Sequence record: PZ386953.1
Direction: 5' to 3' (one strand)
Origin: a phage
DNA: 64,000 nucleotides
The notes below the pieces were generated by a model, which was given only the letters and a program-made list of their open reading frames with translations, was not told where the DNA came from and made no database searches. How positions within the stretch are numbered: the stretch's first letter is position 1; each line of letters begins with the position of its first letter. The translations under genes were made by a program, and so were the position numbers. Below are positions 50,404 to 64,000 of the stretch, piece by piece.

Positions 50404-50729
50404 CAGAGATCATCATTTCAACTGCAGGGTATGTGTTCCTGACAATCATTGCACTGACTATTTTGGTGACAGTGTATGGGTTTGTTATCCTTCCTATCCT
50501 TGAGACATTTAGTTTGTGTCGGTGTTGGAGAAAAGCTTACGGTCCACAACCATGGAAGGACTGGCCCCACCTGGTGCGCTTAGCGTTCTCTTATGCTTAC
50601 GATCACTACAGTAGTGCATGCATAACCGGATACCACGCCCACAACTGGAGCTGGGAAGGGTTGAGGAAATGGAATGTTACAAAGACCATACCTCTGCGCA
50701 TGTACAAACCTAAAAACAAAGACAACTGA
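50400..50729 (+). CDS. membrane protein
   Basis: 109 aa with long N-terminal hydrophobic segment; ATGA overlap. Confidence 0.4.
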   Translation: MTEIIISTAGYVFLTIIALTILVTVYGFVILPILETFSLCRCWRKAYGPQPWKDWPHLVRLAFSYAYDHYSSACITGYHAHNWSWEGLRKWNVTKTIPLRMYKPKNKDN

Positions 50730-50732
50730 TAC

Positions 50733-50761
50733 TTGAAAATTCCTGGCATATCAAGTATAAG
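50733..50761 (+). promoter_or_regulatory. sigma70-like promoter inside a palindrome
   Basis: TTGAAA-17 bp-TATAAG; embedded in TACTTGA...TCAAGTA inverted repeat. Confidence 0.4.
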
Positions 50762-51036
50762 GGGGATTTCTAAAATGGATTTCCTCCTTTTGATATTTCA
50801 CCGGGCTGGATATTTTAAAATTCTTAGAAAATCAGAAAATGGATCGAAAACTAAAATGTATTTTTCAGAGTAGGCGCGACAAGCTGAATAACTCATCCTA
50901 TCGTTTGCACCATATTCCAGGCCACCATTATAGATTTTCCCACACATGCTCACATCCTTCTACCAGAACTTTCCCACTCGCCCTTGGCCTTTTATGGCAA
51001 TAATCCAGCCACTATCTTGAAGTTGCGGTACAGCTT

Positions 51037-51128
51037 TCCAAGTACTCGATCTGTTTTTCGTTTCAAAGATTGAATTTTCTGAAAATTTTTCTCGATAAAT
51101 TTCCAAGTACTCGATCTGTTTTTCGTTT
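51037..51128 (+). repeat. iteron-like direct repeats
   Basis: TTCCAAGTACTCGATCTGTTTTTCGTTT at 51037-51064 and 51101-51128; partial third copy TCGATTTTTCGTTTT at 51189. Confidence 0.7.
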
Positions 51129-51332
51129 TCTGAATCGGATTTTCTGGAAATCGTTCCAGCTCTCTACCTGAAATTTTTGGGGACGAAATCGATTTTTCGT
51201 TTTCAGAAATGGATTTTTAAAATTTCTATATGGGAATATTTTATGGGATACTGTTTTATAGGAAATTGTTACGGAGGGTAATTAGCATGCTAATTAAATT
51301 TATTAAATGCGAGGAGTTCTCATTTAGAATTT

Positions 51333-51350
51333 TGAATGATAATCATTCTC
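51333..51350 (+). promoter_or_regulatory. Fur-box-like sequence
   Basis: TGAATGATAATCATTCTC matches about 15 of 19 positions of GATAATGATAATCATTATC; weaker copy at 51464-51480. Confidence 0.3.
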
Positions 51351-51365
51351 GTTTGCAGAATAACG

Positions 51366-51388
51366 GGCAGGCCCGGTGATTGTCTCCC
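51366..51388 (+). repeat. 23-bp GC-rich element, copy A
   Basis: GGCAGGCCCGGTGATTGTCTCCC; exact reverse complement at 60968..60990; diverged tandem copy at 51505..51540. Confidence 0.75.
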
Positions 51389-51745
51389 GGCCCCTGTTGC
51401 CCCGGCTTGTTATTATAGTATCACACAGGACAAAGAAGGCAAGGATTTTTTGCATAAATTTTTAAATGATAATGATAACCGTTCTCATTTTATGCAGCGC
51501 CCATCCCCGGTGGTTGTCTCCCCCGTCACCGGTGCCTGCCGTCCTTTCGATAGGTATATTGTGCCCCCCCTGGCGGGGCCGCTGTCAACACCTTTTCAAA
51601 AAATTTTTCTAACCTGATGCGCTAACCGTTGCAACCTGGCGGGGCCAGCCTGGCAGGACCTAACTGACCAGGTGGGAGAGGGTGAAATCTTGCAAACCTG
51701 GTAGGCCCATGCTGTAGGGTAAACAATTGAAGAGGAGGTACAAAA

Positions 51746-51886
51746 ATGAAAGGTAATGCTACTCACCTGGGAAATGTAGTGATTAATGATACAGAAGCGC
51801 GGGAACATAAAGAAGAGTACGAAAAAATGGTGGTTAACCTGGCGGGGGCGGCAGGTGGATTCTATCATAAAAATAATTTAAAATAA
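51746..51886 (+). CDS. small protein (46 aa)
   Basis: ATG after GAAGAGGAGG; below tool size cutoff. Confidence 0.35.
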   Translation: MKGNATHLGNVVINDTEAREHKEEYEKMVVNLAGAAGGFYHKNNLK

Positions 51887-51889
51887 TCG

Positions 51890-51918
51890 TTGACAACAAG
51901 GTTAATCATGGTATTATT
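51890..51918 (+). promoter_or_regulatory. sigma70-like early promoter
   Basis: TTGACA-17 bp-TATTAT. Confidence 0.5.
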
Positions 51919-51967
51919 ACCCTACAAGGTGAACAACACCGCACTAACCAGTAAAGAGGATAAAATC

Positions 51968-52165
51968 ATGAACGCATACGGGATCAAAGTACGTCGCAAC
52001 ACTCGCCAGGTGGTCACCGATCAAATGGTTTGCCAGGTGGACGTAACCATCAACAACGGGCAAGGCCTTTATAAATTCCGTCGCGGTCAGAGCTATACCC
52101 GGCAACAGCTTAATCGTTGCGCCCTGACAAAAGGACAGATCAACCACTGGTTTAATAAAAAATAA
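51968..52165 (+). CDS. small basic early protein (66 aa)
   Basis: ATG after AAGAGGATAAAATC leader; promoter 51890-51918 (tool start 51890 is the -35 TTG). Confidence 0.5.
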   Translation: MNAYGIKVRRNTRQVVTDQMVCQVDVTINNGQGLYKFRRGQSYTRQQLNRCALTKGQINHWFNKK

Positions 52166-52168
52166 GTA

Positions 52169-52197
52169 TTGACATATAGTCCGACACCAAATACACT
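52169..52197 (+). promoter_or_regulatory. sigma70-like early promoter
   Basis: TTGACA-17 bp-TACACT. Confidence 0.45.
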
Positions 52198-52229
52198 AAA
52201 AGCACAAAAGACACTAAGAGGATAAAATC

Positions 52230-52628
52230 ATGAAAACCACCACCTTTAATTTTGATAATGCGGACTTTTCTTTTTCTGATGTCAAGAACTGCCGCCGTGA
52301 TCGTGGATTTTACAAGGCTTATAATCTGGTGGGCCTGGACGATGACAATAATTTGCACGAAGTAGCTGAGATCCGGTATTATGCCGCCGCCAGCGGGAAC
52401 ACTCACTACTGCGTGTTTTGGATTCACGACAACAAGAACAATAAGTACGGTTATACTGGCGGCAAGGCGAGCGGTCACGGTTACGATAAAGCTAACGCAG
52501 CACTTGAGAGCGCATTAAATGCTATGGGGATCACTGCCGACGGCTGGATCTACGAAGAAGAGTTTTTGTCGGCACTTGCTGACCACCTGGGCTATAAAAA
52601 ACACATTGTAACATGCGCCCACGAATAA
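52230..52628 (+). CDS. hypothetical early protein
   Basis: 132 aa; identical AAGAGGATAAAATCATG leader; promoter 52169-52197. Confidence 0.5.
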   Translation: MKTTTFNFDNADFSFSDVKNCRRDRGFYKAYNLVGLDDDNNLHEVAEIRYYAAASGNTHYCVFWIHDNKNNKYGYTGGKASGHGYDKANAALESALNAMGITADGWIYEEEFLSALADHLGYKKHIVTCAHE

Positions 52629-52710
52629 AAATCATTGACACGCTGCAAAATTTAAGTAAACTAGACACAAAAGGCGGGAATGTTTCCCGCCAGCACAAAG
52701 GAAAAAGATC

Positions 52711-53106
52711 ATGAATAAGAACGTACGCCGCATCATGAACGAACTGGCAAACGATGAAAAAATTATTGATATGCATTTGGTCAACATTTGCCGCCGTTGT
52801 GTAACATATAACAACCGCGCCGCAAAAGCGCGTGAGATGAACGCAAAAGGCACCTTAAAGCCCTTTCAGGTGGTTGTAAAATCTATAACTAGCGCAGCAG
52901 GCCAGGCGCAGGACCACAACAACGAGAGCGCTAATATTGATCCGTCTTACGTAATGAAACGGATCCGGACTTGCAAGAATAAAGAGCAGGTATATAACGT
53001 CATAGATTGGCTGGACTCCCTGGGCGATGTGGTTTACAATAGGTTTTCTGCAGCTATCGAGATCCAGCTTGACAGATTGGACGGGAAAGTACTAAAAACT
53101 TATTGA
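52711..53106 (+). CDS. hypothetical early protein
   Basis: 131 aa; promoter 52635-52662, leader hairpin 52673-52691. Confidence 0.5.
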   Translation: MNKNVRRIMNELANDEKIIDMHLVNICRRCVTYNNRAAKAREMNAKGTLKPFQVVVKSITSAAGQAQDHNNESANIDPSYVMKRIRTCKNKEQVYNVIDWLDSLGDVVYNRFSAAIEIQLDRLDGKVLKTY

Positions 53107-53108
53107 GT

Positions 53109-53154
53109 TTATTTTTAGATGGCCTTGACACCAGGGCCATCAATAAAGTAAACT
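53109..53154 (+). promoter_or_regulatory. 46-bp palindromic promoter box, copy 1
   Basis: TTATTTTTAGATGGCCTTGACACCAGGGCCATCAATAAAGTAAACT; 7-bp inverted repeat GATGGCC/GGCCATC brackets the -35 TTGACA. Confidence 0.55.
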
Positions 53155-53186
53155 AACCACAGTTGAGCGGAAAAGGAGGCTTAAAG

Positions 53187-53306
53187 ATGAGCACTACACG
53201 CCAGCACACAAAGGTAACCATCATCGTTTGCATCATTGGGTACATCCTGGCGCAAATGTTGATGGGTAGCGCCAACGGTGTCGCAAAATTTTTCTTAAAC
53301 TTTTAA
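53187..53306 (+). CDS. small hydrophobic peptide (39 aa)
   Basis: ATG 6 nt after AAGGAGG, downstream of promoter box 53109-53154; one hydrophobic helix. Confidence 0.35.
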   Translation: MSTTRQHTKVTIIVCIIGYILAQMLMGSANGVAKFFLNF

Positions 53307-53334
53307 TTGACAAGCTAACTTAAATCGATATAAT
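53307..53334 (+). promoter_or_regulatory. consensus sigma70-like early promoter
   Basis: TTGACA-16 bp-TATAAT. Confidence 0.55.
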
Positions 53335-53385
53335 AAGCACATAAACGGGAAAACTTCCCAGAACACACAAAAGGAGAAAAACACC

Positions 53386-53727
53386 ATGACTACTATGACC
53401 GCCTCAGAAAAAGCTATGCAGATCGCTGAACTGAAAAAACAGATCGCAGACCTTGAGAATAAGATCGATAACTTTGAAATCGACGAGGACAAGTACGACG
53501 AAAACTATGATGAATGGTTAGACGAGATCTACGGCGAAATTATGATCGGAAACATTTCTTTTCTTCCGTCGCGTATCCTCAAGGAGCTAGATCCTATCGC
53601 TTACCGCTGCGGATTTAGCGACTACATCGACAGCCTGGATATTGAGAACGATGAAGAATACCAGGAATTACAGACAGAGTTAGAAGAAGCAAAAGAAGAG
53701 CTTGCGGAGCTGGAAGAAAACGAGTAA
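53386..53727 (+). CDS. highly acidic coiled-coil early protein
   Basis: 113 aa, D/E-rich, ends EELAELEENE; consensus promoter 53307-53334. Confidence 0.5.
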   Translation: MTTMTASEKAMQIAELKKQIADLENKIDNFEIDEDKYDENYDEWLDEIYGEIMIGNISFLPSRILKELDPIAYRCGFSDYIDSLDIENDEEYQELQTELEEAKEELAELEENE

Positions 53728-53729
53728 GC

Positions 53730-53775
53730 TTATTTTTAGATGGCCTTGACACCAGGGCCATCAATAAAGTAAACT
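53730..53775 (+). promoter_or_regulatory. 46-bp palindromic promoter box, copy 2
   Basis: Identical 46-mer to copy 1, immediately after a stop codon. Confidence 0.55.
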
Positions 53776-53816
53776 TTATACTGTTAACACTGAACGAATG
53801 CATAGGAGTTAAAACC

Positions 53817-54062
53817 ATGGCAGCACTAATCACCAAATATTATGCCCCTACCAATACCAAAAGCGCCCGTATCATGGTAAAAGGCTTCGGACGTAAAAAG
53901 GTGTACACCTGGGATTATGCCTTAGACACGGAAGACAACTACACCAACGCAATGACCGATTTTATTAATGAACTAAATAAGCAGATCTTGACAAGTTATA
54001 AAGTGACCGATATTGCTTATATAGGTGAAGGCGGGATCTGTTTTGTAGGCATTGTGAAATAG
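53817..54062 (+). CDS. hypothetical early protein
   Basis: 81 aa; ATAGGAGTTAAAACCATGGC leader repeated at 58407; promoter box upstream. Confidence 0.45.
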   Translation: MAALITKYYAPTNTKSARIMVKGFGRKKVYTWDYALDTEDNYTNAMTDFINELNKQILTSYKVTDIAYIGEGGICFVGIVK

Positions 54063-54110
54063 TTATTTTTTCGGTGGTCCTGGTTGCAGGGCCATCTATA
54101 AAGATAATTT
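54062..54110 (+). promoter_or_regulatory. diverged promoter box, copy 4
   Basis: TTATTTTTTCGGTGGTCCTGGTTGCAGGGCCATCTATAAAG: same layout, degenerate arms. Confidence 0.3.
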
Positions 54111-54136
54111 ATTAACACCATGAAAGGAGAAAGTAC

Positions 54137-54490
54137 ATGATCAGCGGGGCAAGTTTTATTATTGGCGCTATTGCTACGGCTTTAATTGTAAATAAGATCC
54201 AGGATAAAAAGGAAAGAGGAAGTACCGCCCTTGCAGAATATCCATTTTGGGCATTCAACGATAACGAAGATTATATTATAAAGTATAAAAATAAAGAAGG
54301 TGACCAAGTAACACCGCGACCGATCCCGGCTTACAAAATGCAGGAAACACTATACCGCCTGAAGGCGGGGGGCGCAAAAATTGTAGACTTTTGGGGATAC
54401 GACCACACAGATCAGGAAGTTATAAAGCGCCGTATCCGGGCTATTCAGGCCAATATTGAAGTTAGCAAGGGGGGAATATATGAAAATTAA
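54137..54490 (+). CDS. membrane-anchored early protein
   Basis: 117 aa, N-terminal hydrophobic helix; GAAAGGAGA RBS. Confidence 0.45.
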   Translation: MISGASFIIGAIATALIVNKIQDKKERGSTALAEYPFWAFNDNEDYIIKYKNKEGDQVTPRPIPAYKMQETLYRLKAGGAKIVDFWGYDHTDQEVIKRRIRAIQANIEVSKGGIYEN

Positions 54491-54677
54491 TTTCGAGAAA
54501 ATTGTAAAGCGCCCTCATGATTCCGAAGAGCTGCCAGAACGCCGCCAGCGTAACAATAAACTGAATAAGCCAAAAAGGTTTGGGAAGATCTGGCGTAATC
54601 ATTATGATCGTAAATTGCCCGGCCTACTTTTGGAACGTGAACGACAGGCAGAACGATACCGCCATAAAGACAAATAA
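54480..54677 (+). CDS. small basic protein (65 aa)
   Basis: ATG after AAGGGGGG, overlaps upstream stop; terminator follows. Confidence 0.35.
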   Translation: MKINFEKIVKRPHDSEELPERRQRNNKLNKPKRFGKIWRNHYDRKLPGLLLERERQAERYRHKDK

Positions 54678-54685
54678 CAACCAAC

Positions 54686-54715
54686 TCCCCGCCATTGTGC
54701 GGGGCTTTTTATTTC
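54686..54715 (+). terminator. intrinsic terminator
   Basis: CCCCGC-CATTGT-GCGGGG then CTTTTTATTTC. Confidence 0.65.
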
Positions 54716-54836
54716 TATCCTACGAATAGCGCCCCTGGTTGGCCCTGTAAGCGCCAAAAAGGCCCCCACCTATGCAATCGCCCCCCTTTAACCTGAAAAC
54801 ATCGCCCATGGCCGTTTCATGGCGTTAAAAATATCA

Positions 54837-54864
54837 TTGACATCGTCAACAGGTTAGCTATACT
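54837..54864 (+). promoter_or_regulatory. sigma70-like early promoter
   Basis: TTGACA-16 bp-TATACT. Confidence 0.5.
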
Positions 54865-54896
54865 AACCACATCAAAGAGAGAAAGGAGTAAACGCC

Positions 54897-55157
54897 ATGC
54901 GTAAATTAAAAAATTTTGATAAAGTTGATGTTATCCTGAATAATTTTTACTACTGCAACAACAAGGCTATTTGGTGGCGTGATAGTTCCACCGATAAAGT
55001 TAAGGCGCGCTTTCTTCAAGGGCACTGGCAAGGCCGCCCAGTGATTAAAATCATGGGGCAATTGGTAGCTTTCAAAAATTGCCGCCGTGCTGATGATATC
55101 GAAGATATCTTGAACGTTTTACGCTACAACAATTTTAAAAATAGTGTTGACAAGTAA
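54897..55157 (+). CDS. hypothetical early protein
   Basis: 86 aa; promoter 54837-54864; GAAAGGAG RBS. Confidence 0.45.
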   Translation: MRKLKNFDKVDVILNNFYYCNNKAIWWRDSSTDKVKARFLQGHWQGRPVIKIMGQLVAFKNCRRADDIEDILNVLRYNNFKNSVDK

Positions 55158-55174
55158 GATTAAACAAGTATACT
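55147..55174 (+). promoter_or_regulatory. sigma70-like early promoter
   Basis: TTGACA-16 bp-TATACT, overlaps upstream stop codon. Confidence 0.5.
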
Positions 55175-55231
55175 TAATCACATAGGCGGGAAAAATTCCC
55201 GCCACCGCCGAAGAAAATAGGAGAAAATATC

Positions 55232-55855
55232 ATGACTACCGTTAACATTACCGCAGGTTACAATTTATCTTTCGACGTGCTGACCGACGAACAAAAAGAA
55301 AAAGCCGTTGAAATGGTCCGCGAAAGAGAGGAAAACAGCGGTGATAACTTTTTCGCAGAAAGCGTAATTGAATACTATAAAGAATATGTTTTTCCAGAGT
55401 ATGGCCTTGAAGATACCGAAGTACATTGGTCAGGCTTTTGGTGCCAGGGTGACGGCGCGTCAATCAGTGCTGAAAACGTGGATTTAGAAAAATTTTTGCG
55501 TAAAGTAAAGGCCCTGACCAAGTTCCGATCAATTCGTCACTTGTTCGGCACAATGCACGATGGCGAGTTATCAGCCAGTGTTGAACGCGACAAGTACAGC
55601 CATTACAGCCATGAAAACACTGTAAGCGGGTACATTGATACCACTTGGCTAGATCTGACCGCCAAACAAGAAAACAAAGTGGAAGACCTGGAAGAACTGA
55701 TCACCGAGACGGTACGGGAGCTATCCCGCAAGGTTTACGTAGACCTGGAGGAGGCCTATCTAGAACAGTTCACCGCAGAAAACCTGATCGGCCTTATCGA
55801 GGCCAATAACTGGCGGTTTGATGTCGATGAATATGGTGAGATGACTTTTTCATAA
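55232..55855 (+). CDS. acidic early protein
   Basis: 207 aa, net acidic; promoter 55147-55174 and leader hairpin 55185-55203. Confidence 0.5.
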   Translation: MTTVNITAGYNLSFDVLTDEQKEKAVEMVREREENSGDNFFAESVIEYYKEYVFPEYGLEDTEVHWSGFWCQGDGASISAENVDLEKFLRKVKALTKFRSIRHLFGTMHDGELSASVERDKYSHYSHENTVSGYIDTTWLDLTAKQENKVEDLEELITETVRELSRKVYVDLEEAYLEQFTAENLIGLIEANNWRFDVDEYGEMTFS

Positions 55856-55863
55856 ATAAAGTG

Positions 55864-55891
55864 TTGCAATAACCTAAAAACCTGCTATATT
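55864..55891 (+). promoter_or_regulatory. sigma70-like early promoter
   Basis: TTGCAA-16 bp-TATATT. Confidence 0.45.
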
Positions 55892-55945
55892 AAAACTCAA
55901 GGGGGCAAGACGTTTGCCCCAACACAAAACAAAGAGGATAACATC

Positions 55946-56326
55946 ATGAAAAACACTACCAAGGCTATTGACACCGTTATGTTTAACCTGGTTACATTCC
56001 GTGAAGATATGAAAGATCTTCCTCGTGAAACAGTGTGCGACCATATCGAAAACTATCGCAAACTAATCAAAGAGTTGCCTTTAAAACGTGATCAATATGC
56101 GGCTAACGCCATGCTTAATGCCATGATCAAAAAGATGATCCAGTGTGATTTAACCCTGGCCTATGATTATGCAGGCGGTCGTTTTGCAGTATACAATCAG
56201 CCCGTGCCCGGTATGAGCACCACCGAAGAATTGCACGCGCTCAATCTAAAACAAGACGTGTGGGATAGTATGCCTCGCGTGGTGGTATGGGTAGAAAGCG
56301 GAAAGATTTACGGCGATAATTTTTAA
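55946..56326 (+). CDS. hypothetical early protein
   Basis: 126 aa; promoter 55864-55891, leader hairpin, AAAGAGGATAACATCATG. Confidence 0.45.
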   Translation: MKNTTKAIDTVMFNLVTFREDMKDLPRETVCDHIENYRKLIKELPLKRDQYAANAMLNAMIKKMIQCDLTLAYDYAGGRFAVYNQPVPGMSTTEELHALNLKQDVWDSMPRVVVWVESGKIYGDNF

Positions 56327-56390
56327 TCAGGTAGCAGGCGGCATATTTGCCGCCTTATTGTTAATCAGAACTGTAAAAGAGGTACATAGA

Positions 56391-56762
56391 ATGGAATTTA
56401 TTATTTTGGCTGTATTGGTTGCCTTGTTTAACGCCTGGATCGCTGGCAAGATGGGAAGATCCGCCTTTTTATGGTTTATTATATCTATTTTCCTGGGGGT
56501 GGTTGCAACTATTGTATTGGTTATCCTTGCAATTGTTGACAAGGGGAATAATAGAAAGGGTAAAGTATTTTCAGACCTGTACGACGCTCAAACGTTTGTC
56601 AACGCCTATTATAGTGATCTTCCAGTCTCCCTACGCTGCAGCCTGGCACAACAGGTTTTTGATGAGGCTAAAACCAGAGATCAAGCCCATGAGATATGTT
56701 TAACTGAGGCGGATCGCCTATTTGAGAGGAATAGAAAATATGTGGGCCAACCGTTTAAATAA
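56391..56762 (+). CDS. membrane protein
   Basis: ATG after AAAGAGG; two predicted TM helices. Confidence 0.45.
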   Translation: MEFIILAVLVALFNAWIAGKMGRSAFLWFIISIFLGVVATIVLVILAIVDKGNNRKGKVFSDLYDAQTFVNAYYSDLPVSLRCSLAQQVFDEAKTRDQAHEICLTEADRLFERNRKYVGQPFK

Positions 56763-56985
56763 TGCCACGTTAATTAATCCCTTTAGTGAAGATTTGAAGC
56801 CAGCCGCCTGGCGTGACGGATTCAATAACGAACGCTTTATTTTCAGGCCTGATCTTGAGGAATTTTATAACAATGGATCGAACAACAGCGGAGATAATTT
56901 TTCTTGTGGTGTGCGTGGTGATGGTACTCCTGGGGGCCATTGTAAACCACGTCACTACTACCAGAAGGAAAGGGGGAGACGATGA
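56740..56985 (+). CDS. hypothetical protein (frame uncertain)
   Basis: ATG after GAGAGGA; TGA overlaps next start (ATGA); an alternative 41-aa TM peptide ORF exists in another frame (56873..56998). Confidence 0.3.
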   Translation: MWANRLNNATLINPFSEDLKPAAWRDGFNNERFIFRPDLEEFYNNGSNNSGDNFSCGVRGDGTPGGHCKPRHYYQKERGRR

Positions 56986-57101
56986 CAACCAAGGATAAGC
57001 CATGTACCGATAAGGTGCGCCGCGTTATGGTATGGCTTGAGATTATCGCCCTTGAAATATTGCTAGGCGTAGGGATGTACTTTATCGCTGTAAGTAACTA
57101 A
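56982..57101 (+). CDS. small membrane peptide (39 aa)
   Basis: ATG 6 nt after AAGGGGGAG; one TM helix; terminator follows. Confidence 0.35.
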   Translation: MTTKDKPCTDKVRRVMVWLEIIALEILLGVGMYFIAVSN

Positions 57102-57104
57102 GAA

Positions 57105-57134
57105 CGGCCCCCGATCATGGGGGCCTATCTTTTA
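57105..57134 (+). terminator. intrinsic terminator
   Basis: GGCCCCC-GATCAT-GGGGGCC then TATCTTTT. Confidence 0.6.
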
Positions 57135-57240
57135 AAAAAATTTTTCTTCCGTGGTGTTGCAATCCGATCCGGAATGTGGATAATAACAATCAACGGGGAG
57201 CTAATCCCCACCACCACAAAAACCAGAAAGGAGAAACAAA

Positions 57241-57441
57241 ATGAGCAACAATATCCGCGTTATTAACTTCAAAAAAGAAGAAAAAATTGCCGTGCTGATT
57301 GACGGTCAAGAAATCTTCAAGGGCGACTATGAAGATCATCAAACGGCGATTAGTATCACTCGCGTGATTGGTTACCATAATTTCTACCCCCAAGGCGCTG
57401 AGGCAGCAGTTAAACGAATCAAAGAGATTGTAGGCCTGTAA
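57241..57441 (+). CDS. hypothetical early protein
   Basis: 66 aa; promoter 57157-57186; GAAAGGAGA RBS. Confidence 0.45.
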   Translation: MSNNIRVINFKKEEKIAVLIDGQEIFKGDYEDHQTAISITRVIGYHNFYPQGAEAAVKRIKEIVGL

Positions 57442-57444
57442 AAT

Positions 57445-57490
57445 TTATTTTTAGATGGCCTTGACTTCAGGGCCATCAATAAAGTAAATT
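57445..57490 (+). promoter_or_regulatory. 46-bp palindromic promoter box, copy 3
   Basis: Same box with 3 substitutions (TTGACT, TAAATT). Confidence 0.5.
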
Positions 57491-57532
57491 TAAACCCTGT
57501 TAAAATAATCAGTGCAAAAAGGAGTAATGGTC

Positions 57533-57832
57533 ATGTTTATACCCGCCAATAATCTTTATTTCTTTGATGGTCAGATCGTAGACGGTGTGGAAGTGGAGAT
57601 CACTGGGTGCCCTGGTGGTCAGGCTATGACTTTTCGGAATAATGCCTTTGATGATTCTCGTATCGTTATGAGAATGGAAGTTACAAAGCTGGACGACAAG
57701 AAAACACTCATTGACTATTCCGTGAAAGATCATCCAGACCACCACATGATCTATGGTGATTTGTGCATTGTTGACCGTGACAAGGTGAGCGGCATTGTGA
57801 TCGCTATTGTGAACGATGTTTTCTCAAACTAA
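57533..57832 (+). CDS. hypothetical early protein
   Basis: ATG 8 nt after AAGGAG (tool GTG start is 21 nt upstream); promoter box 57445-57490. Confidence 0.45.
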   Translation: MFIPANNLYFFDGQIVDGVEVEITGCPGGQAMTFRNNAFDDSRIVMRMEVTKLDDKKTLIDYSVKDHPDHHMIYGDLCIVDRDKVSGIVIAIVNDVFSN

Positions 57833-57849
57833 TTTCAGCAGGTGATTTT

Positions 57850-58200
57850 ATGAAAGTTAAATTATATTACCTCAATGAGCTTAACCCGCTTGCACAAGTC
57901 CACGCCCTGGATAACGCTGTTTATTGTGAAAAGTCTATATACAGTGTTGAGCTTAACGCTATGCGTGAACGCCTTAAAGGCGGTTACTTTGACATCCATG
58001 CTGCAATCAACGGCCTGAATATAGAATTTATCCGCTTACGTAACAGCCGCCAGAATCTGGCAAGAATGGAACAAGATCCGGCCCACCTTCGTAAGCTGGT
58101 TATTGAAAATCATCTGATGTTTAATGCCGATGGTGATTATTACCATTTTCACCGTAAACGCTGGTACCGTAGCGGCAATATAGGAAAGAATGCAAAATAA
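57850..58200 (+). CDS. hypothetical early protein
   Basis: 116 aa; terminator follows. Confidence 0.45.
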   Translation: MKVKLYYLNELNPLAQVHALDNAVYCEKSIYSVELNAMRERLKGGYFDIHAAINGLNIEFIRLRNSRQNLARMEQDPAHLRKLVIENHLMFNADGDYYHFHRKRWYRSGNIGKNAK

Positions 58201-58236
58201 GGCCCCTGGCAGGGCCTGCAGCGATATAATCACATA

Positions 58237-58270
58237 AAGGCTATGCGGTTGCATAGCCTTTATTATTTTG
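58237..58270 (+). terminator. intrinsic terminator
   Basis: AGGCTATGC-GGTT-GCATAGCCT then TTATTATTTT. Confidence 0.65.
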
Positions 58271-58406
58271 GCGTTACAGCGGCCCCCAAGGCGCTTAAAA
58301 AATTTTTAAAGAAGTACTTGCATCAAGTCCTACAATATGGATAATAAAGGGTGTCGGGGGGCGGTGAGGCCTCCAATCATTAACCGGATAGATAGGAGTT
58401 AAAACC

Positions 58407-58691
58407 ATGGCTATTGTTACCGTTGGCGATGTAGTAGAAATGGAAGCCAAATACTTAAAAGCTGGTATGCATATCATACGGAATGATCAAGAATTGTTAT
58501 TAACCATGGTTGAATATAATCCCGGTCAGGATTATCCAAGCATTGACTACTTTTTCCAGTATGTTGATGAAGAATTAAAAGAGGATGAGGCTTATCAGGG
58601 TGAATTTTGTAATTTCTTTTGCTCTGATGAGGTTGTAAAAGTTATCTATCAACCTGGCGTACCTTTCCCGCTGCACGCTATCAATAAATAA
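58407..58691 (+). CDS. hypothetical early protein
   Basis: 94 aa; promoter-like 58318-58346; repeated leader ATAGGAGTTAAAACCATGGC. Confidence 0.45.
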   Translation: MAIVTVGDVVEMEAKYLKAGMHIIRNDQELLLTMVEYNPGQDYPSIDYFFQYVDEELKEDEAYQGEFCNFFCSDEVVKVIYQPGVPFPLHAINK

Positions 58692-58747
58692 ACCTGGCGG
58701 GGCCGAAAAGGCCCCCCAATTATGAAAATAAAGAGAGGCAAATCATC

Positions 58748-58981
58748 ATGATGGAACAAATTAAACGCGCCGAGGCTATTAATGGCAACGTGATCTATTT
58801 TGTCAGCAAAAACGAAAAAGGCGTACCCTATGCGGCGGTAATAGTACAGCCTGACGGCGATTATTGGTGCACTGTGTACGGCGCTTATTCTTTTGGGCGT
58901 CCGGTGCATGATAAAATTTTGAAAGTAGCGAACCCTACCGGGAAAAATATTACAGCAGAAAAATTTTTTGAAAATAGTTGA
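58748..58981 (+). CDS. hypothetical early protein
   Basis: 77-aa ORF after hairpin 58699-58715. Confidence 0.4.
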   Translation: MMEQIKRAEAINGNVIYFVSKNEKGVPYAAVIVQPDGDYWCTVYGAYSFGRPVHDKILKVANPTGKNITAEKFFENS

Positions 58982-59005
58982 CATGACTATATAAAACTGT
59001 AGTAT
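58978..59005 (+). promoter_or_regulatory. sigma70-like early promoter
   Basis: TTGACA-16 bp-TAGTAT. Confidence 0.45.
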
Positions 59006-59057
59006 ATAAATCAAAGGGGGCAACAAGCCCCACCAACCACAAAGAGGATAAAAAATC

Positions 59058-59237
59058 ATGGCTATTATTGCAAAGACCGAGATCGTAGGCTTAGATTCTA
59101 TTCTCCTCGCATATGAGGAAGCTATAGAAATGTATGTGGTTTCCTATGGTGAGTATATCCGTGAATATGAATCTATTGATCTAGCTTTTGAATGTTATAT
59201 TCGCCAGGTTAATAAAGCGTACGATGATTATCGTTAA
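59058..59237 (+). CDS. small protein (59 aa)
   Basis: ATG after AAAGAGGATAAAAAATC; promoter 58978-59005; below tool cutoff. Confidence 0.4.
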   Translation: MAIIAKTEIVGLDSILLAYEEAIEMYVVSYGEYIREYESIDLAFECYIRQVNKAYDDYR

Positions 59238-59328
59238 AATAGTTTGACAACAAACAACCATCTAACAAAGCATAATACATAAGGTGGTAGAATGATCCGC
59301 CACCCGGAACAAAGAAGAGGTAAACACC

Positions 59329-59574
59329 ATGAAAAGCAATAAAGGTTATAACGGTTACAAAAACAAAACTCATTGGAATGTAAGCCTTTGGATTAATAAC
59401 GATGAGTCATTGTACCGGTTGGCCCAAGGATTTATTAACGCTAATGCTAATCGTAATGATGCGGCGCGGGATATGATGCTTTTTCTGGAGCTAACCGGAC
59501 AAGATAAGACCCCGGACGGCTTCAAGTACAGCACTACGGCGATCCGTGCCGCGATGGTTGGAATGAAACACTAA
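59329..59574 (+). CDS. hypothetical early protein
   Basis: 81 aa; AAGAAGAGG RBS. Confidence 0.45.
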   Translation: MKSNKGYNGYKNKTHWNVSLWINNDESLYRLAQGFINANANRNDAARDMMLFLELTGQDKTPDGFKYSTTAIRAAMVGMKH

Positions 59575-59651
59575 AAGCACATAGCCGCCTTACCCTGGGG
59601 CTGTAGTAGCGGCCCCATGAATAAGGTTACTAACAGAAGAGAATAAACACT

Positions 59652-59756
59652 ATGAAACAGAAATTAATCGATGCAGTGATCTTGGTTATTGCCCTGGGTA
59701 TTGGCCTGATTGCAACCATGTCTAATATGATCTTGTCTTCCAACGGTATCGGGTGA
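59652..59756 (+). CDS. small membrane peptide (34 aa)
   Basis: Single hydrophobic helix; weak RBS; below tool cutoff. Confidence 0.25.
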   Translation: MKQKLIDAVILVIALGIGLIATMSNMILSSNGIG

Positions 59757-59765
59757 GGTTGGCAA

Positions 59766-59981
59766 ATGATCACTAACAAAACAGGCAAAACAGAATTTTT
59801 ACGCAACTTACAGATCGGCAAGCCTGAGATCTGGTACTGCACTAAAACACCGCGTGACGAAATGAAAGACTTCACCGCCACGCTGCAACGGGTAAAGATA
59901 TCTATCACGCAGAAAAAGGCCTTACTAGTGGTGGAAGGGGAGATCCCCCAAACCGTTGTTATAGTTGAGCGTACAGCATAG
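59766..59981 (+). CDS. hypothetical protein
   Basis: 71-aa ORF. Confidence 0.4.
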   Translation: MITNKTGKTEFLRNLQIGKPEIWYCTKTPRDEMKDFTATLQRVKISITQKKALLVVEGEIPQTVVIVERTA

Positions 59982-60072
59982 TTTAATTTATACCGATACC
60001 CGAAAATTAACCAACAAAGCATAAACAGGCGGTTACCGCCGCCTTAAACGTAGCAGAAAGAGGATAGACACA

Positions 60073-60363
60073 ATGAAAAAGATGATCGCAGTGGTTGCCC
60101 TGGTTGTTGGACTTAGTGCGCCTGCAATGGCTAATGAGCTGGCAAAAGAGGTTAATCTAACGGATATTCATGCCGTCAATCGAATCGGGGTTACTTATCG
60201 CTTATGCCTTGCCACTAAAACTTTTAATGACGGTACAACAGAGTACTACGGGTTTGAGGGTATCCGGTGCGGTGAGCTTGCTCGCGACCTTAAGGAAGAT
60301 CCAGACCTGGAAGATCTGCCCATCACCGTAAACGGTAAAGCTTACGTAAACCGCCAACAATAA
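60073..60363 (+). CDS. secreted/periplasmic small protein
   Basis: Signal peptide MKKMIAVVALVVGLSAPAMA; AAAGAGGAT leader. Confidence 0.45.
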   Translation: MKKMIAVVALVVGLSAPAMANELAKEVNLTDIHAVNRIGVTYRLCLATKTFNDGTTEYYGFEGIRCGELARDLKEDPDLEDLPITVNGKAYVNRQQ

Positions 60364-60379
60364 GTAAGGGAGATGTAAA

Positions 60380-60571
60380 ATGAATACTGAACAAGTTAGA
60401 AAGGTATTGGCGGTACTGCGTTATCATAATCATAGAAAGGTCATAGACGATCCTGATTATGTAGATTCAAGCCTGGAAGAAGACACGCTACAAGCTATCA
60501 GCCATATGCAAGAATTGCTTAAGCGCATGACAGAGAAAAACCGACCGGACTACATAGGGGGTAAAATATGA
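60380..60571 (+). CDS. hypothetical protein
   Basis: 63 aa; AAGGGAG RBS. Confidence 0.4.
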   Translation: MNTEQVRKVLAVLRYHNHRKVIDDPDYVDSSLEEDTLQAISHMQELLKRMTEKNRPDYIGGKI

Positions 60572-60879
60572 TCGCTATTACGCCAACCGTTTTAGATTGG
60601 TATCGGCAACGCATAGCTCCTCCGCTGGCTATCTTCAAAGATGCGGAATCAAAACAACGCCGGATCTCAATACATGAGATCATCAACCTTAACGCTGGAG
60701 GCACACCATACCGCCCAGGGCCTGGCCGTGAGATGGACAATACGTTAGCGATCCTGAAGATACGCCGTAAACGGTCCTCCCTTACGCTGGACTCCTTACA
60801 CACAATGCAGTCTCCGTTCCAGGTGACCGGGAAACGGATCGCCAGGTCCTGGACAAAGGCCAATGATCGGACCGTATAA
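60568..60879 (+). CDS. hypothetical basic protein
   Basis: 103 aa; ATGA overlap. Confidence 0.4.
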   Translation: MIAITPTVLDWYRQRIAPPLAIFKDAESKQRRISIHEIINLNAGGTPYRPGPGREMDNTLAILKIRRKRSSLTLDSLHTMQSPFQVTGKRIARSWTKANDRTV

Positions 60880-60967
60880 ATAAAAAGTGCTTTGGTACTG
60901 ATTTTGGGGGTTGACTTGTTCGGCCCCTTTTGCTATTCTTATTAAACGGGCGGCACTTGGGAACAGG

Positions 60968-60990
60968 GGGAGACAATCACCGGGCCTGCC
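60968..60990 (-). repeat. 23-bp GC-rich element, copy C (inverted)
   Basis: GGGAGACAATCACCGGGCCTGCC is the exact reverse complement of copy A. Confidence 0.75.
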
Positions 60991-61098
60991 TGTCATATAA
61001 GAACTATAAAAACCGTTGACATCTGCCAGGTGGTGGGGTAACATTTATCTTGAAGGGGCAAAAGTGCCCACACAACAACCAGAAGAGAGGAAAACATT

Positions 61099-61371
61099 AT
61101 GTCAAGCTGGATTAATCAAGAAGTCGAATCACGTTTTAATGCTATTTGGGATCTCATCGAAAAAGAGGACGGAACATCAAGCCCTTATCTCAATAATCTT
61201 GAATTCCATTTCGTGGAAGCGATGAACGCAGAACATGATCACGAAGGTGGTGCGGATGAGTTCGCTAAAGGGTATGGCTTCAACAATGCCAACGAAATGA
61301 TCGAGGCGGTTGTACTCCAGGCTGAGGAAGATTATCAATTAAAAACGCTTGAATTCTGCCGCCGTAAGTAA
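61099..61371 (+). CDS. acidic early protein
   Basis: 90 aa, D/E-rich; promoter 61005-61034 and leader hairpin. Confidence 0.45.
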   Translation: MSSWINQEVESRFNAIWDLIEKEDGTSSPYLNNLEFHFVEAMNAEHDHEGGADEFAKGYGFNNANEMIEAVVLQAEEDYQLKTLEFCRRK

Positions 61372-61433
61372 TAAGATAATGACACGGGCCAAAAGGCCCA
61401 CTAAACAAAAACCACATAAAGAGGAAAAACATC

Positions 61434-61697
61434 ATGAAACGTCTTGACCAGCTCAAACTAGTTCAATATATGGCTTATCGTGTTCTGGAAGTCCAGAAAG
61501 GTAGCAAAAAAGAGGTTTGCGAGAAAGCTTATAAGATCTTTACCCGCAAAAAAGATGACTGGATGCTACGCCAGACCAAAAAGGCTGACATCTTGGGGTA
61601 CCTGGAAGAAGAGATCCGACTTGAAGAACAAGAAGAGATCCGCCGTAGTGAGGCAGATTATCAGGCAGCTTGGGAAAACTGGATGAGCAACAAATAA
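61434..61697 (+). CDS. hypothetical early protein
   Basis: 87 aa; AAAGAGGAAAAACATCATG leader. Confidence 0.45.
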   Translation: MKRLDQLKLVQYMAYRVLEVQKGSKKEVCEKAYKIFTRKKDDWMLRQTKKADILGYLEEEIRLEEQEEIRRSEADYQAAWENWMSNK

Positions 61698-61763
61698 TAC
61701 AACAAGTTACATGGTCAGGGGCAATAAAGCCCCTTGATCACATAAAAATTATGCTATCCTTGG

Positions 61764-61792
61764 TTGACAGGGATCGGCAGTTTTGCTATATT
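61764..61792 (+). promoter_or_regulatory. sigma70-like early promoter
   Basis: TTGACA-17 bp-TATATT. Confidence 0.5.
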
Positions 61793-61842
61793 CTTTTTTG
61801 AAGGGAAGTTGTAAGAAAATTAACTGAGAGGTAAAAAACACC

Positions 61843-62262
61843 ATGAACATTAAATCTGATAATCCGGCATATAGCTTTGATAACGCTTTTTGTCACGGTC
61901 CGGCGGCGAAAGGATTCGAAATCGATGGTAAACTAATTATTGTCAATGTTGACGGGGAAGAGGTTGCAGTATATCCGGTGGCGGACGTTAAAAGCCGTCT
62001 ACAATGCCGCATGGATGTTACCGCCTATCAGCTTGATCCGGTCCGCGTAGTTGCCCTGGTCCTGGAGGAAGAGATCAAAGCCATGCATCATAGCAACAAG
62101 TTTATCGGTGACGCGCAAGATAATATGAAGGTATGCCGCCATAAAGTTAACGAAGTTCTTAAAGAATACGGCTTCAAAGATCTGATGATCAAGCGTGATG
62201 AAAAATTCCGCTATCGTAATGACCTGGCAAATCGAATCTATCAAATATACGAATCATTATAA
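61843..62262 (+). CDS. hypothetical early protein
   Basis: 139 aa; promoter 61764-61792; terminator follows. Confidence 0.5.
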   Translation: MNIKSDNPAYSFDNAFCHGPAAKGFEIDGKLIIVNVDGEEVAVYPVADVKSRLQCRMDVTAYQLDPVRVVALVLEEEIKAMHHSNKFIGDAQDNMKVCRHKVNEVLKEYGFKDLMIKRDEKFRYRNDLANRIYQIYESL

Positions 62263-62280: not shown

Positions 62281-62310
62281 AGGGGCTTTAAAAGGCCCCT
62301 TTCTTTTTGT
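62281..62310 (+). terminator. intrinsic terminator
   Basis: AGGGGC...GCCCCT hairpin then TTCTTTTTG, ends the early array. Confidence 0.65.
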
Positions 62311-62879
62311 CTGTATTTCTCCTACCACAAACGGCCCCACCTGGCAAGTGGAATAATTGACTAGCCATCAATCCCACACACTGTACAAATATACATGTAA
62401 AATAGCTATTGCATAATCTTTCATTGTGTGGTAGCAGGGCCATTTTTACACGTTTTTCCTTCCAAAATTGCACGTAATGCCGCTATTGCACAAAATTTAA
62501 CCTGATGCATATCTTCAGTGTCTTGTCAACAACTAAAAATCTTTATAAGTCATACACTTACACACTCACAAAAGCGTGTTCTACGTGAAAAATCGAGTAT
62601 AACTATAGCCGCCAGATCTCAGAATTTACGTACGTTCACCATTCTATAGTCTGCTAAGTATTTATTCCAACCATAGAATAATGGAATAGTCAATACCTGC
62701 ATAAAATAATTATTCGTGTAAACTGCATAACATAAATCAGCTTAGGTGTCAACATTTTTCGTAAACAGCCTGAAATTATCACGGTGAGTTATCATAAACA
62801 GAGAAATCTTTAGTCGTCTAATGTTTACTGTACATTACTATACTTACTGGAATCATTAGATGACTAAGAGAAAGATAAG

Positions 62880-63360
62880 AAATAATTAACAATACAATTA
62901 TTTTATCTGTAACAATAAGGCAACTATGCAAACGAATGGCATGGCGCGACGGAGTCGCGACATAATATAAAAGCAGTAACCATCACCCCCGTGATAGTTT
63001 GTCTGCAAACTATTAATCAGATCATAGTTGCCTTGTATTTAGTTAATCATGACATAACAAGCAAGGCAACTATAGATCTGCTAATAGTTGCCCTGCTTTT
63101 ATATTATGTCATATATTATTAACCTGTTAATTGTCAGCTTATTGGCTGTTAGCTTGTCAATTGTTAACTTGTTAATTGTTATCATGCAAACGAATGTCAT
63201 GGCTTATCATCTTTGTGTAAACAGTCAATCATGTAAATGATAAGTATGTGAACAGTTATCCATGTAAACTATTAGACATGTAAACAATCAGGTGTGCAAA
63301 AGTGTCATAGTATGTCACTATTGTGTCTAAAGTGTCACCAGTATGTCAGACAAGTTTTTC
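62880..63360. repeat. repeat-dense AT-rich non-coding region
   Basis: AAGGCAACTAT in alternating orientation x4 (62918, 63026, 63063, 63085); GCAAACGAATG(G/T)CATGGC x2; several (T/C)GTAAAC motifs; TTAATTGT repeats. Confidence 0.6.
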
Positions 63361-64000
63361 TCCTCTTTGTCAAGTGCTGCATGAAAAATTTACAAACTGG
63401 TATGGTAGCATTTTTGCGGCCCTGTTTACATTCAGCGATGTATGTATAAACCTTGCTGTGTGGGCGTTTAGACGTCTAGACGGTTGGAAGTCTGCAGGTC
63501 AATATCTAATCTATTGGCTGCTAACCATATCCCACACAAATAGTAATAAATATAATTGTTATATGCGTAAACAGTAACTCATGTTATCAATCCCTGTATG
63601 TATCGCCAGTGGTGCGCATAATGGGTATTATGTTAAATTGCCCGTAATGATAACTATTCTCACAATGATAGGTATTCTCATTCACCCCCACAAGATAGGT
63701 TGCAAATGTTGTGCCACTGTGTGAACGGCCTAGCCTATTAATTTGCCTCACTGCCTTGATATTTGAGAATTGTTATAAGAATGAGAAGTATTCCCATTTC
63801 GTCCGCTTGGCAGCACTCCAGTCGCTACCGGCTCCTGACAGGGCAGCACTCCTGTCGGTCAGGTCAAAATCGTGGTATAACTGGACCTGTTCAGATATTT
63901 CTGGCTGACTCTTCAGGCCTGTGTGGGAAAAGCCGACCCCTCCGGCGGCGGGGAGGGGGTCAATTAAAAAATTTACGGGGTATATGAAGCGCTCTTCAGG

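Follow-up and report, generated by a model that had tools for sequence, protein, structure and literature searches.

The window analyzed here is a 64,000-nt stretch of phage DNA (sequence record PZ386953.1) from a Vequintavirus (rV5-like) coliphage genome; in a 3-kb query that includes copy A (below), the identity to phages nom, nomine and HdK5 is 98%. A 23-bp element, GGCAGGCCCGGTGATTGTCTCCC, lies at 51366-51388 on the + strand (copy A), and its exact reverse complement lies at 60968-60990 (copy B). In annotated relatives, all genes from DNA polymerase via an array of small genes to the end of the genome are on the + strand, so that copy A is not placed at a divergent junction. The order in the window is about 0.7 kb of noncoding DNA (51.0-51.7 kb), which contains copy A and a third copy, A', then the small-gene array, copy B, and three further + strand genes (61099-62262). 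Past those genes, about 1.1 kb of noncoding DNA rich in repeats and palindromes is followed by a homolog of the terminal repeat (together 62300-63806), and the window therefore spans the physical end of the genome. Copy A lies about 12 kb (about 9% of the genome) and copy B 2.4-2.8 kb from this end. The copies, and the terminal repeat, are located as follows.

51331-51444, + (the element's orientation): cassette copy A, whole unit; nhmmer E=1.5e-28, aligning with the copies of nine other lineages
51366-51388, +: core of copy A, 23 bp, GGCAGGCCCGGTGATTGTCTCCC; GGTG and one T are invariant in all copies
51468-51559, +: cassette copy A', tandem and diverged; nhmmer E=2.1e-14, core CCGGTGGTTGTCTCCC at 51507-51522, box at 51473-51487
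60910-61022, -: cassette copy B, whole unit, inverted; nhmmer E=3e-21
60968-60990, -: core of copy B, 23 bp, exact reverse complement of the core of copy A
63349-63806, no strand: homolog of the direct terminal repeat, 94.8% identical to the annotated 459-bp repeat_region of phage Gotham; marks the physical genome end

The repeat is a real, deeply conserved and undescribed cis element. No published description of the cassette, and no interpretation of this noncoding region in these phages, was found; the rV5 genome paper shows such a "non-coding" box with no comment on it (PMC3606486). An earlier note on this DNA, which drew attention to the inverted match, had held that it could not be due to chance. 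Indeed, no match to the 23-mer appeared in 100 dinucleotide-preserving shuffles of the window, even with three mismatches allowed, and, by our estimate, an inverted match of 23 nt would arise by chance in 64 kb with a probability of about 6e-5. The statement that the pair brackets the early array is also correct, as nearly all the small genes lie between the copies, with the three + strand genes beyond B. Its view of the extent of the element was right for the 23 bp and fell short of the rest of a cassette of about 115 bp, defined by alignment of 27 copies, and of the third copy. The similarity between A and B already reaches beyond the 23-mer (29 nt at 93%, 51360-51388 versus 60968-60996), and A', at 51500-51524 (+) in tandem to A, is diverged and has one mismatch in the 16-nt core. 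On the complete genome of a relative, MG065646.1 (137,167 bp), the cassette profile gives exactly three matches, which are A, A' and B, and no further 13-mer with up to one mismatch from the core was found there. Because core sites are limited to these three, the element is not a motif scattered through the genome.

Conservation of the pair extends well beyond the genus. A 43-nt query around copy A matched 141 phage records, typically twice in each Vequintavirus genome. In relatives, pattern and profile searches found A (+) and B (-), 7-12 kb apart, in six genera of two subfamilies, namely Vequintavirus, Certrevirus (CR3, KaOmega and DU_PP_I), Seunavirus, Mydovirus, Henunavirus and Phapecoctavirus. 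Loss of the element from relatives, which the earlier note had envisaged as a sign against it, is thus not what is seen, and it is retained even in another subfamily. As for the search methods, a bare 14-mer scan of viral contigs returned nearly all chance matches in unrelated coding DNA, and a 17-base pattern scan retrieved the few true relatives. In every annotated genus outside Vequintavirus except Seunavirus, copy A sits where the array begins, in a stretch of about 0.9-1.4 kb with few or no annotated genes; in GEC_vB_MG, small open reading frames (ORFs) are annotated across this stretch. The gene families neighboring the copies differ from genus to genus, which rules out a tie of the element to particular flanking genes. 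By our reading of the alignment, the variable arms of the cassette are of an A type and a B type, each common to several genera; judged from these arms, the A/B duplication would be ancient, and both paralogs would have been retained.

In the orientation of the element, the cassette consists of a palindromic box (consensus TGAGAATCATTCTCA), GAATAGC, GGGCAGG, the core CCGGTG-W-TTGTCTC, and a variable arm of about 20 nt with indels. On the far side, a sigma-70 promoter with its -35 in a hairpin loop follows on the opposite strand. Only GGTG and one T are invariant in the alignment, and about 10 other positions are at least 90% conserved. The box of copy A is the following.

51337-51351, no strand: Fur-box-like palindrome TGATAATCATTCTCG, at a gap-free fixed distance to the core; the 19-mer at 51332 agrees with the Fur consensus at 15/19 positions

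From this operator box to the core the alignment runs without gaps, and the last box is 38 nt before the core in both CR3 and phi92. Such rigid spacing is as expected of DNA-bound factors working together. The sequence of the core on the transcribed strand is GGAG, an A-rich spacer of 5-7 bases, and CACC, with no start codon, and it resembles the ribosome-binding region of an early gene; four A lineages have GCGAG in place of GGGAG. The arm directly 5' of the core (51369-51372 and 60984-60987 in the window) has two alleles, AGG(C/T) and ACCC. They recur at A and B sites of different lineages (the same position in L002, L003, L004, L005 and L127) with no compensating change, which suggests short-patch gene conversion between copies or phages.

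Both candidate promoters of the cassette were scored in 23 copies, with 3,000 windows drawn at random from the same genomes as background. The opposite-strand promoter (P_rev) has a mean score of 8.85 versus a background of 6.52 ± 1.19, and it reaches at least 9 in 16 of the 23 copies compared with 4.2% of background windows. Its -10 lies 37-43 nt, mostly 40-42 nt, from GGTG, although the intervening sequence turns over with indels. In other lineages, the equivalent of the P_rev of copy A scores 9-11 of 12. The same-strand candidate averages 6.07 versus a background of 5.58, and no copy scores 9 or more (the best, 8.5). The supposed -10 of this candidate reads CAGAAT, GAGAAT, CGGAAT or CTGAAT, and a true -10 would not tolerate variation at the second position; thus a same-strand, operator-controlled promoter for a small RNA was rejected. 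The promoters in the window, and the repeats at which one of them points, are listed here.

51412-51442, -: candidate outward promoter P_rev of copy A; -35 TTGCCT (51442-51437), 19-nt spacer, -10 TATAAT (51417-51412), reading leftward through the core complement
60906-60939, +: promoter P1, the P_rev of copy B, tool-called; TTGACT, 17-nt spacer, TG-extended TATTCT
61016-61044, +: second promoter P2 beyond core B, tool-called; TTGACA, 17-nt spacer, TAACAT
51032-51217, +: three 47-nt direct repeats, two of which contain GATC, beside an AT-rich stretch; the conserved promoter of copy A points at their noncoding region

The -35 of P1 is inside a terminator-like hairpin (60906-60928), and P1 reads rightward through the core complement into the last three array genes. 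P2 takes the place that the operator part of the cassette has in other genera. With the copies inverted, the P_rev promoters would fire outward, from B to the last three genes and the terminus and from A leftward into the noncoding region. Judged from these predicted promoters, the core complement GGGAGACAAUCACCGG would be located at about +18 to +35 of the two transcripts. Early promoters with the -35 hexamer in a GC-rich hairpin loop recur through the array (53106-53154, 53727-53775, 54061-54109 and 57442-57490; also 60906-60939).

The constraint on the core is on its primary sequence and not on a fold. RNAalifold on the aligned copies gives zero pairs, and the mean z-score of folding per copy is -0.46 on one strand and -0.52 on the other. 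A test for an enclosing helix between the variable 5' segment and the conserved 3' segment gives z = -0.17, that is, no pairing beyond composition. The local CCGG/CCGG helix that is visible in copy A of the window is paired in 67.6% of cells versus 66.9% in shuffles, with no covariation. A conserved RNA or DNA hairpin was rejected on these four tests. No intrinsic terminator was called by the scan at the core of either copy, and many copies are without any hairpin. With Rfam 15, no match reached the gathering score in the whole window, and the two regions gave only chance-level matches (E of at least 0.8). No ORF through the core, leaderless ones included, is conserved on either strand. Many Vequintavirus records have an annotated 93-aa ORF (51336-51617) over A and A', the ATG of which is inside the palindromic box and has no Shine-Dalgarno sequence; its length varies from 26 to 93 codons among relatives, and it is absent in phi92 and most B copies. 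This "hypothetical protein" looks like a spurious, recurrent annotation error.

Several other candidates were set aside. A conserved - strand gene to the right of A is common to phi92 and phiWec179 only. A small RNA directed against ribosome-binding sites was rejected, since its duplex energies with the ribosome-binding regions of the array were matched by 27 of 200 shuffles and were weaker than those with non-array genes. An FtsK-orienting polar sequence (GGGNAGGG) was rejected because the arm alternates between GGGCAGG and GGGCACC in close relatives. Homologs of an 87-aa protein (61434-61697) are labeled "DNA translocase FtsK" in some records; the protein has no Pfam match, and PHROGs places it only in a family of unknown function, so that the label, and with it the pairing of an FtsK motif with a "DNA translocase", is unsupported. 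No match to the 31-mer was obtained in E. coli, by a search that does not reach short seeds. Compared by eye, the core fits none of the sigma-54, CRP, IHF, PhoB, Chi or E. coli Ter consensus sequences.

The palindromic boxes have a distribution of their own. Fur-box-like palindromes of the form TGA[G/T]AATnATT[C/A]TCA are confined to the two noncoding regions on either side of the early domain.

51337-51351, 51473-51487, degenerate 51303-51323, and terminal cluster 63170-63796: Fur-box-like palindromes of the window
L003 (CR3) 13884-13994; L133 14928-15035, 26283 and 26478: Fur-box-like palindromes in relatives

The Fur box of Enterobacteria has the consensus GATAATGATAATCATTATC, or TGATAATnATTATCA in the 7-1-7 form. 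Against this consensus, the match is 16/19 at 51468-51486 and 15/19 at 51332-51350, and exact 7-1-7 boxes are present in phi92, phiWec179, CR3, GEC_vB_MG, Mydo and pEa_SNUABM_55. Upstream of copy A the boxes form phased arrays with 29- and 38-nt steps, which in CR3 and phi92 end at the box 38 nt before the core. Near the terminus there is a second cluster, which includes two boxes inside the terminal repeat of phi92. From sequence, the boxes could equally be operators for a phage protein. Comparison of CR3 with the first-step-transfer (FST) untranslated region of a T5-like phage gives 40/47 ungapped identities across two boxes with identical spacing. In the T5-like phage, DnaA boxes follow where the core would be; the core is absent from the T5-like phage examined, and neither cassette core has a DnaA box.

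The reading we favor, tentatively and with somewhat less than half of our confidence, is that the 23-bp repeat is the most constrained part of an ancient cis-regulatory cassette of about 115 bp, and that its core is a primary-sequence site for a regulatory protein near two outward boundary promoters. Conservation, copy number, orientation, the promoter with its spacing, and the lack of a conserved structure or ORF are directly supported; from them we infer that a protein binds and what its binding does. Each copy would comprise a host-type (sigma-70) early promoter on the strand opposite the repeat, with the -35 in a hairpin loop and the -10 40-42 nt from GGTG. Copy B would fire rightward, P1 serving the last three genes and the terminal noncoding region, and copy A would fire leftward into the noncoding region with the phased Fur-box-like operators and the GATC-containing repeats. 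The core would be bound by a regulatory protein of phage or host on promoter-proximal DNA, for example as an operator or roadblock that governs both boundary promoters jointly. The sequence constraint on the core, the fixed promoter distance, the rigid link to the operator array, and the two or three copies at fixed positions argue for such a protein site. Among the roles offered in the earlier note, paired regulator binding sites would be the one that best fits this evidence, and its convergent RNA elements are not supported by it, as the conserved promoters read the complement and point outward, which makes them divergent, and no RNA structure is conserved.

Several points weigh against a protein site near boundary promoters. 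In phi92, copy A alone is found, with no B copy in the region examined. The promoter evidence is consensus-based throughout; in the window, the P_rev of copy A fails a simple promoter scan because of its 19-nt spacer, and it faces away from all annotated genes, so that its product has no obvious use. The B copies of Vequintavirus and Phapecoctavirus are without the operator box, and the link between box and core is thus not universal. Variants of the core retain the pattern of GGAG, A-rich spacer and CACC, which would also suit an RNA-level element. Finally, the protein screen, which covered 20 array proteins and 10 proteins around A and B and thereby part of the array ORFs, named no binder: the 20 array proteins fall only in PHROGs families of unknown function, and the 10 around the copies have no Pfam match.

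Among the alternatives that act through a transcript, it is doubtful, though it merits serious consideration, that the core complement (about +18 to +35) is recognized in the nascent RNA, either as a nut/put-like mark for processive antitermination or as a Shine-Dalgarno-like 5' stabilizer that binds 30S without initiation. The conserved promoters put the element in the 5' leader of two divergent transcripts, its GGAG, 5-7 A-rich bases and CACC match the phage's own early ribosome-binding regions (e.g., 53373-53385, just before an ATG), a pattern that the core variants keep, and the array is packed with promoter-hairpin cassettes that such transcripts must pass. However, both nut boxB and put need a stem-loop and none is conserved here; reading of the core and its flanks shows nothing like boxA, with no pattern search made; and no Rfam match was seen even at permissive thresholds. 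In addition, GCGAG for GGGAG in four A lineages weakens the Shine-Dalgarno reading, and leader elements normally need no fixed promoter distance, which is fixed in this case. An RNA in the sense of copy A might instead pair, as an antisense or small RNA, with the + strand leader at B or with early ribosome-binding regions. Since all genes are on the + strand, + strand RNAs over A and B would be complementary across 23 nt, and the core is complementary to a sequence like a ribosome-binding region. Such pairing is highly improbable, given the background score of the same-strand promoter, the lack of a terminator delimiting a small RNA, duplex energies no better than those of shuffles, and the failure of A and B to covary (for example, GATTG in A and GTTTG in B of Certrevirus). 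It is quite improbable, too, that the outward promoter of copy A transcribes the AT-rich GATC-repeat region to prime or open a replication origin. The three 47-nt repeats look like iterons and lie with the AT-rich stretch (GC 0.39) just downstream of this promoter, the first 35 nt or so of the transcript look purine-rich by inspection, and at the equivalent place in CR3 (L003, about 13670-13850) a similar motif, CTCGATCnGTTTTTCGTTTT, occurs three times by our reading of the sequence. On the other hand, GC skew shows no sign change at copy A or the 47-nt repeats although all the genes keep to one strand, repeats of this kind are absent directly downstream of copy B, and no initiator gene was identified.

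Explanations at the level of DNA exchange and entry fare as follows. Two inverted copies of an asymmetric sequence flanking a discrete segment are what would be expected of crossover sites for site-specific inversion of the 9.6-kb early module, a role put forward in the earlier note, or of the terminal inverted repeats of a transposon. Both are nearly excluded. No inversion isomers were found in about 130 genomes, assemblies of which would miss rare isomers: a single orientation is present, with no hybrid junctions at A or B, alignments run unbroken across A (of 126 records, 95 align over 80% or more of a query that spans A), and a copy B query matches a single place on a single strand in 129 records. 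The arrangement is fixed at the same position over six genera and not patchy as a transposon or insertion sequence would be, the outer flanks (...ATAACG versus TGTCAT...) have no target-site duplication, no recombinase or transposase is among the screened array proteins, which belong only to unknown-function families, and, as read from the sequence, the core equals its own reverse complement at the terminal CCGG only, which is no crossover-site dyad. Copy B is, nevertheless, a mosaic junction (60928-60968). Many Vequintavirus genomes match the window only from the cassette rightward, homology beginning at query position 479 or 517 in many of them; slur16 is 100% identical from 60966, two bases off the core, and the sequence to the left of B resembles Certrevirus in the window and Phapecoctavirus in HdK5 and Gotham. 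This fits ordinary homologous recombination at a conserved island with no dedicated site-specific system, and the notion of an exchange of the early module stands in that form, as a junction of alternative gene modules. That the whole cassette is a passive recombination anchor, being one more mobile early promoter-hairpin unit of the promoter-early stem-loop (PeSL) kind with a leader kept as a homology island for module swaps, would agree with this junction, with the AGG(C/T) and ACCC alleles at both A and B, and with the -35 of P1 in a hairpin like those of other promoter cassettes of the array. It is improbable, as it leaves unexplained why 14-16 bp stay near-invariant across two subfamilies while some 20 other array promoter cassettes diverge, why the promoter-core distance is fixed, and why exactly two inverted copies occur at a conserved position. 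Unlikely, but with more in its favor, is a boundary like that of T5 first-step transfer, or pre-early, DNA. In this case, the array and terminal region would be delivered or expressed first and the core would bind a factor arresting or anchoring the DNA, as a counterpart of the injection-stop region and the IRC/IRD repeats. The box array beside copy A is similar to the T5-like FST untranslated region, with the same spacing, and the features follow in the same order (terminus, one repeat copy, small genes, inverted copy, palindromes, direct repeats; Davison, bioRxiv 10.1101/866236, section 3.3). The inner boundary is 7.7% (phi92), 8.2% (Gotham) or about 9% (window) from the physical end versus 7.9% in T5, and boxes are also inside the phi92 terminal repeat. 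Moreover, unusual sensitivity to the DNA intercalator daunorubicin is reported for Demerecviridae (T5-like) and Vequintavirinae alike, and the drug blocks T5-like infection at a stage after first-step transfer (PMC13250531). However, the absence of the core from the T5-like phage examined and of DnaA boxes from the cassette, terminal repeats of 343-459 bp and not about 10 kb, and transcription of the array toward the terminus, opposite to T5-like pre-early genes, all speak against it; no report of two-step DNA entry in these phages was found, and no T5 A1 or A2 homolog was recognized among the array proteins screened.

Some further observations were made in the same region. At the head of the array (about 50500-51500), composition shifts sharply with gene orientation unchanged: GC skew drops from roughly 0.15 to roughly 0.03, and AT skew climbs from roughly 0.05 to roughly 0.2. 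A GC-rich motif, AACCTGGCGGGGCC, occurs downstream of A' and inside the array, at 51633, 51836, 58203 and 58691, and a similar sequence, CCCTGGCGGGGCC, is near 51567. Seventeen MG0656xx records named "Campylobacter phage" are 93% identical to the window coliphage, and at least one of them (MG065646.1) is classified as Vequintavirus; the host labels of these records look wrong.

The element matters beyond this genome. Phages of the rV5-like, phi92-like and related groups are isolated widely and are part of therapeutic and biocontrol cocktails, and their early-gene control is essentially unstudied. A noncoding element that is near-constant over two subfamilies and present in just two or three copies, each at a border of the early region, gives a testable entry to that control, whether its reader is of host or phage origin.

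In comparison with known systems, the likeness to the Fur box applies to the palindromes and not to the 23-mer. The palindromes match the consensus and stand in tandem phased arrays, as Fur sites often do, although the commonest half-site here is TGAGAAT and not TGATAAT. The nutL/nutR elements of lambda and putL/putR of HK022 are paired, promoter-proximal leader elements of divergent early operons. Likewise, the cassette cores are two inverted copies, tens of nt downstream of early promoters that point apart, and many terminators await early transcripts; the location shortly downstream of divergent early promoters is shared, by consensus promoter matches only. In contrast to nut and put, there is no boxB or put stem-loop, no covariation and no visible boxA-like sequence, the promoter distance is fixed, one transcript enters noncoding DNA and not genes, and no N-like factor is known. 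PeSL cassettes were reportedly described in T4-type phages by Arbiol and colleagues in 2010. They resemble the present cassettes in joining a host-type early promoter to a hairpin, in being repeated among small variable genes, and in standing at mosaic junctions. The PeSL-like units of the array are many and diverge freely, whereas the cassette adds a near-invariant segment of 14-23 bp and an operator box, and is confined to two or three copies, all at the array borders and in inverted orientation.

The comparison with T5 reaches further. In T5, an inverted-repeat pair several kb apart (IRC-spacer-IRD and IRD'-spacer-IRC') is followed by palindromes and then by direct repeats, at 7.9% of the genome (Davison, bioRxiv 10.1101/866236). 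Here, too, an inverted pair lies kb apart in a terminal block of small early genes, and its inner copy abuts untranslated palindromes, similar in sequence to those of the T5-like phage, and then direct repeats, at an inner edge about 8-9% from the end. The repeat sequence is another one, DnaA boxes are lacking in the cassette, the terminal repeats are short, and gene orientation is opposite. In its fullest form, which is a shade less probable than the already unlikely T5-like boundary as such, the small-gene array of rV5-like and phi92-like myoviruses would be a T5-style pre-early, or first-step, module. It would be bounded at about 8-9% by an untranslated region with a homologous Fur-box-like array, the inverted cassette pair would replace the DnaA-box repeats of T5, and the core would serve a host or phage protein as the site for arresting, anchoring or insulating the entering DNA or its transcription. 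The link to T5 first-step transfer suggests that control of the earliest minutes of infection may be similar in unrelated virion types, with the host iron regulator Fur as a possible input. If the fullest form is true, two-step genome delivery, or its control architecture, extends from the siphoviruses of Demerecviridae to two subfamilies of large myoviruses.

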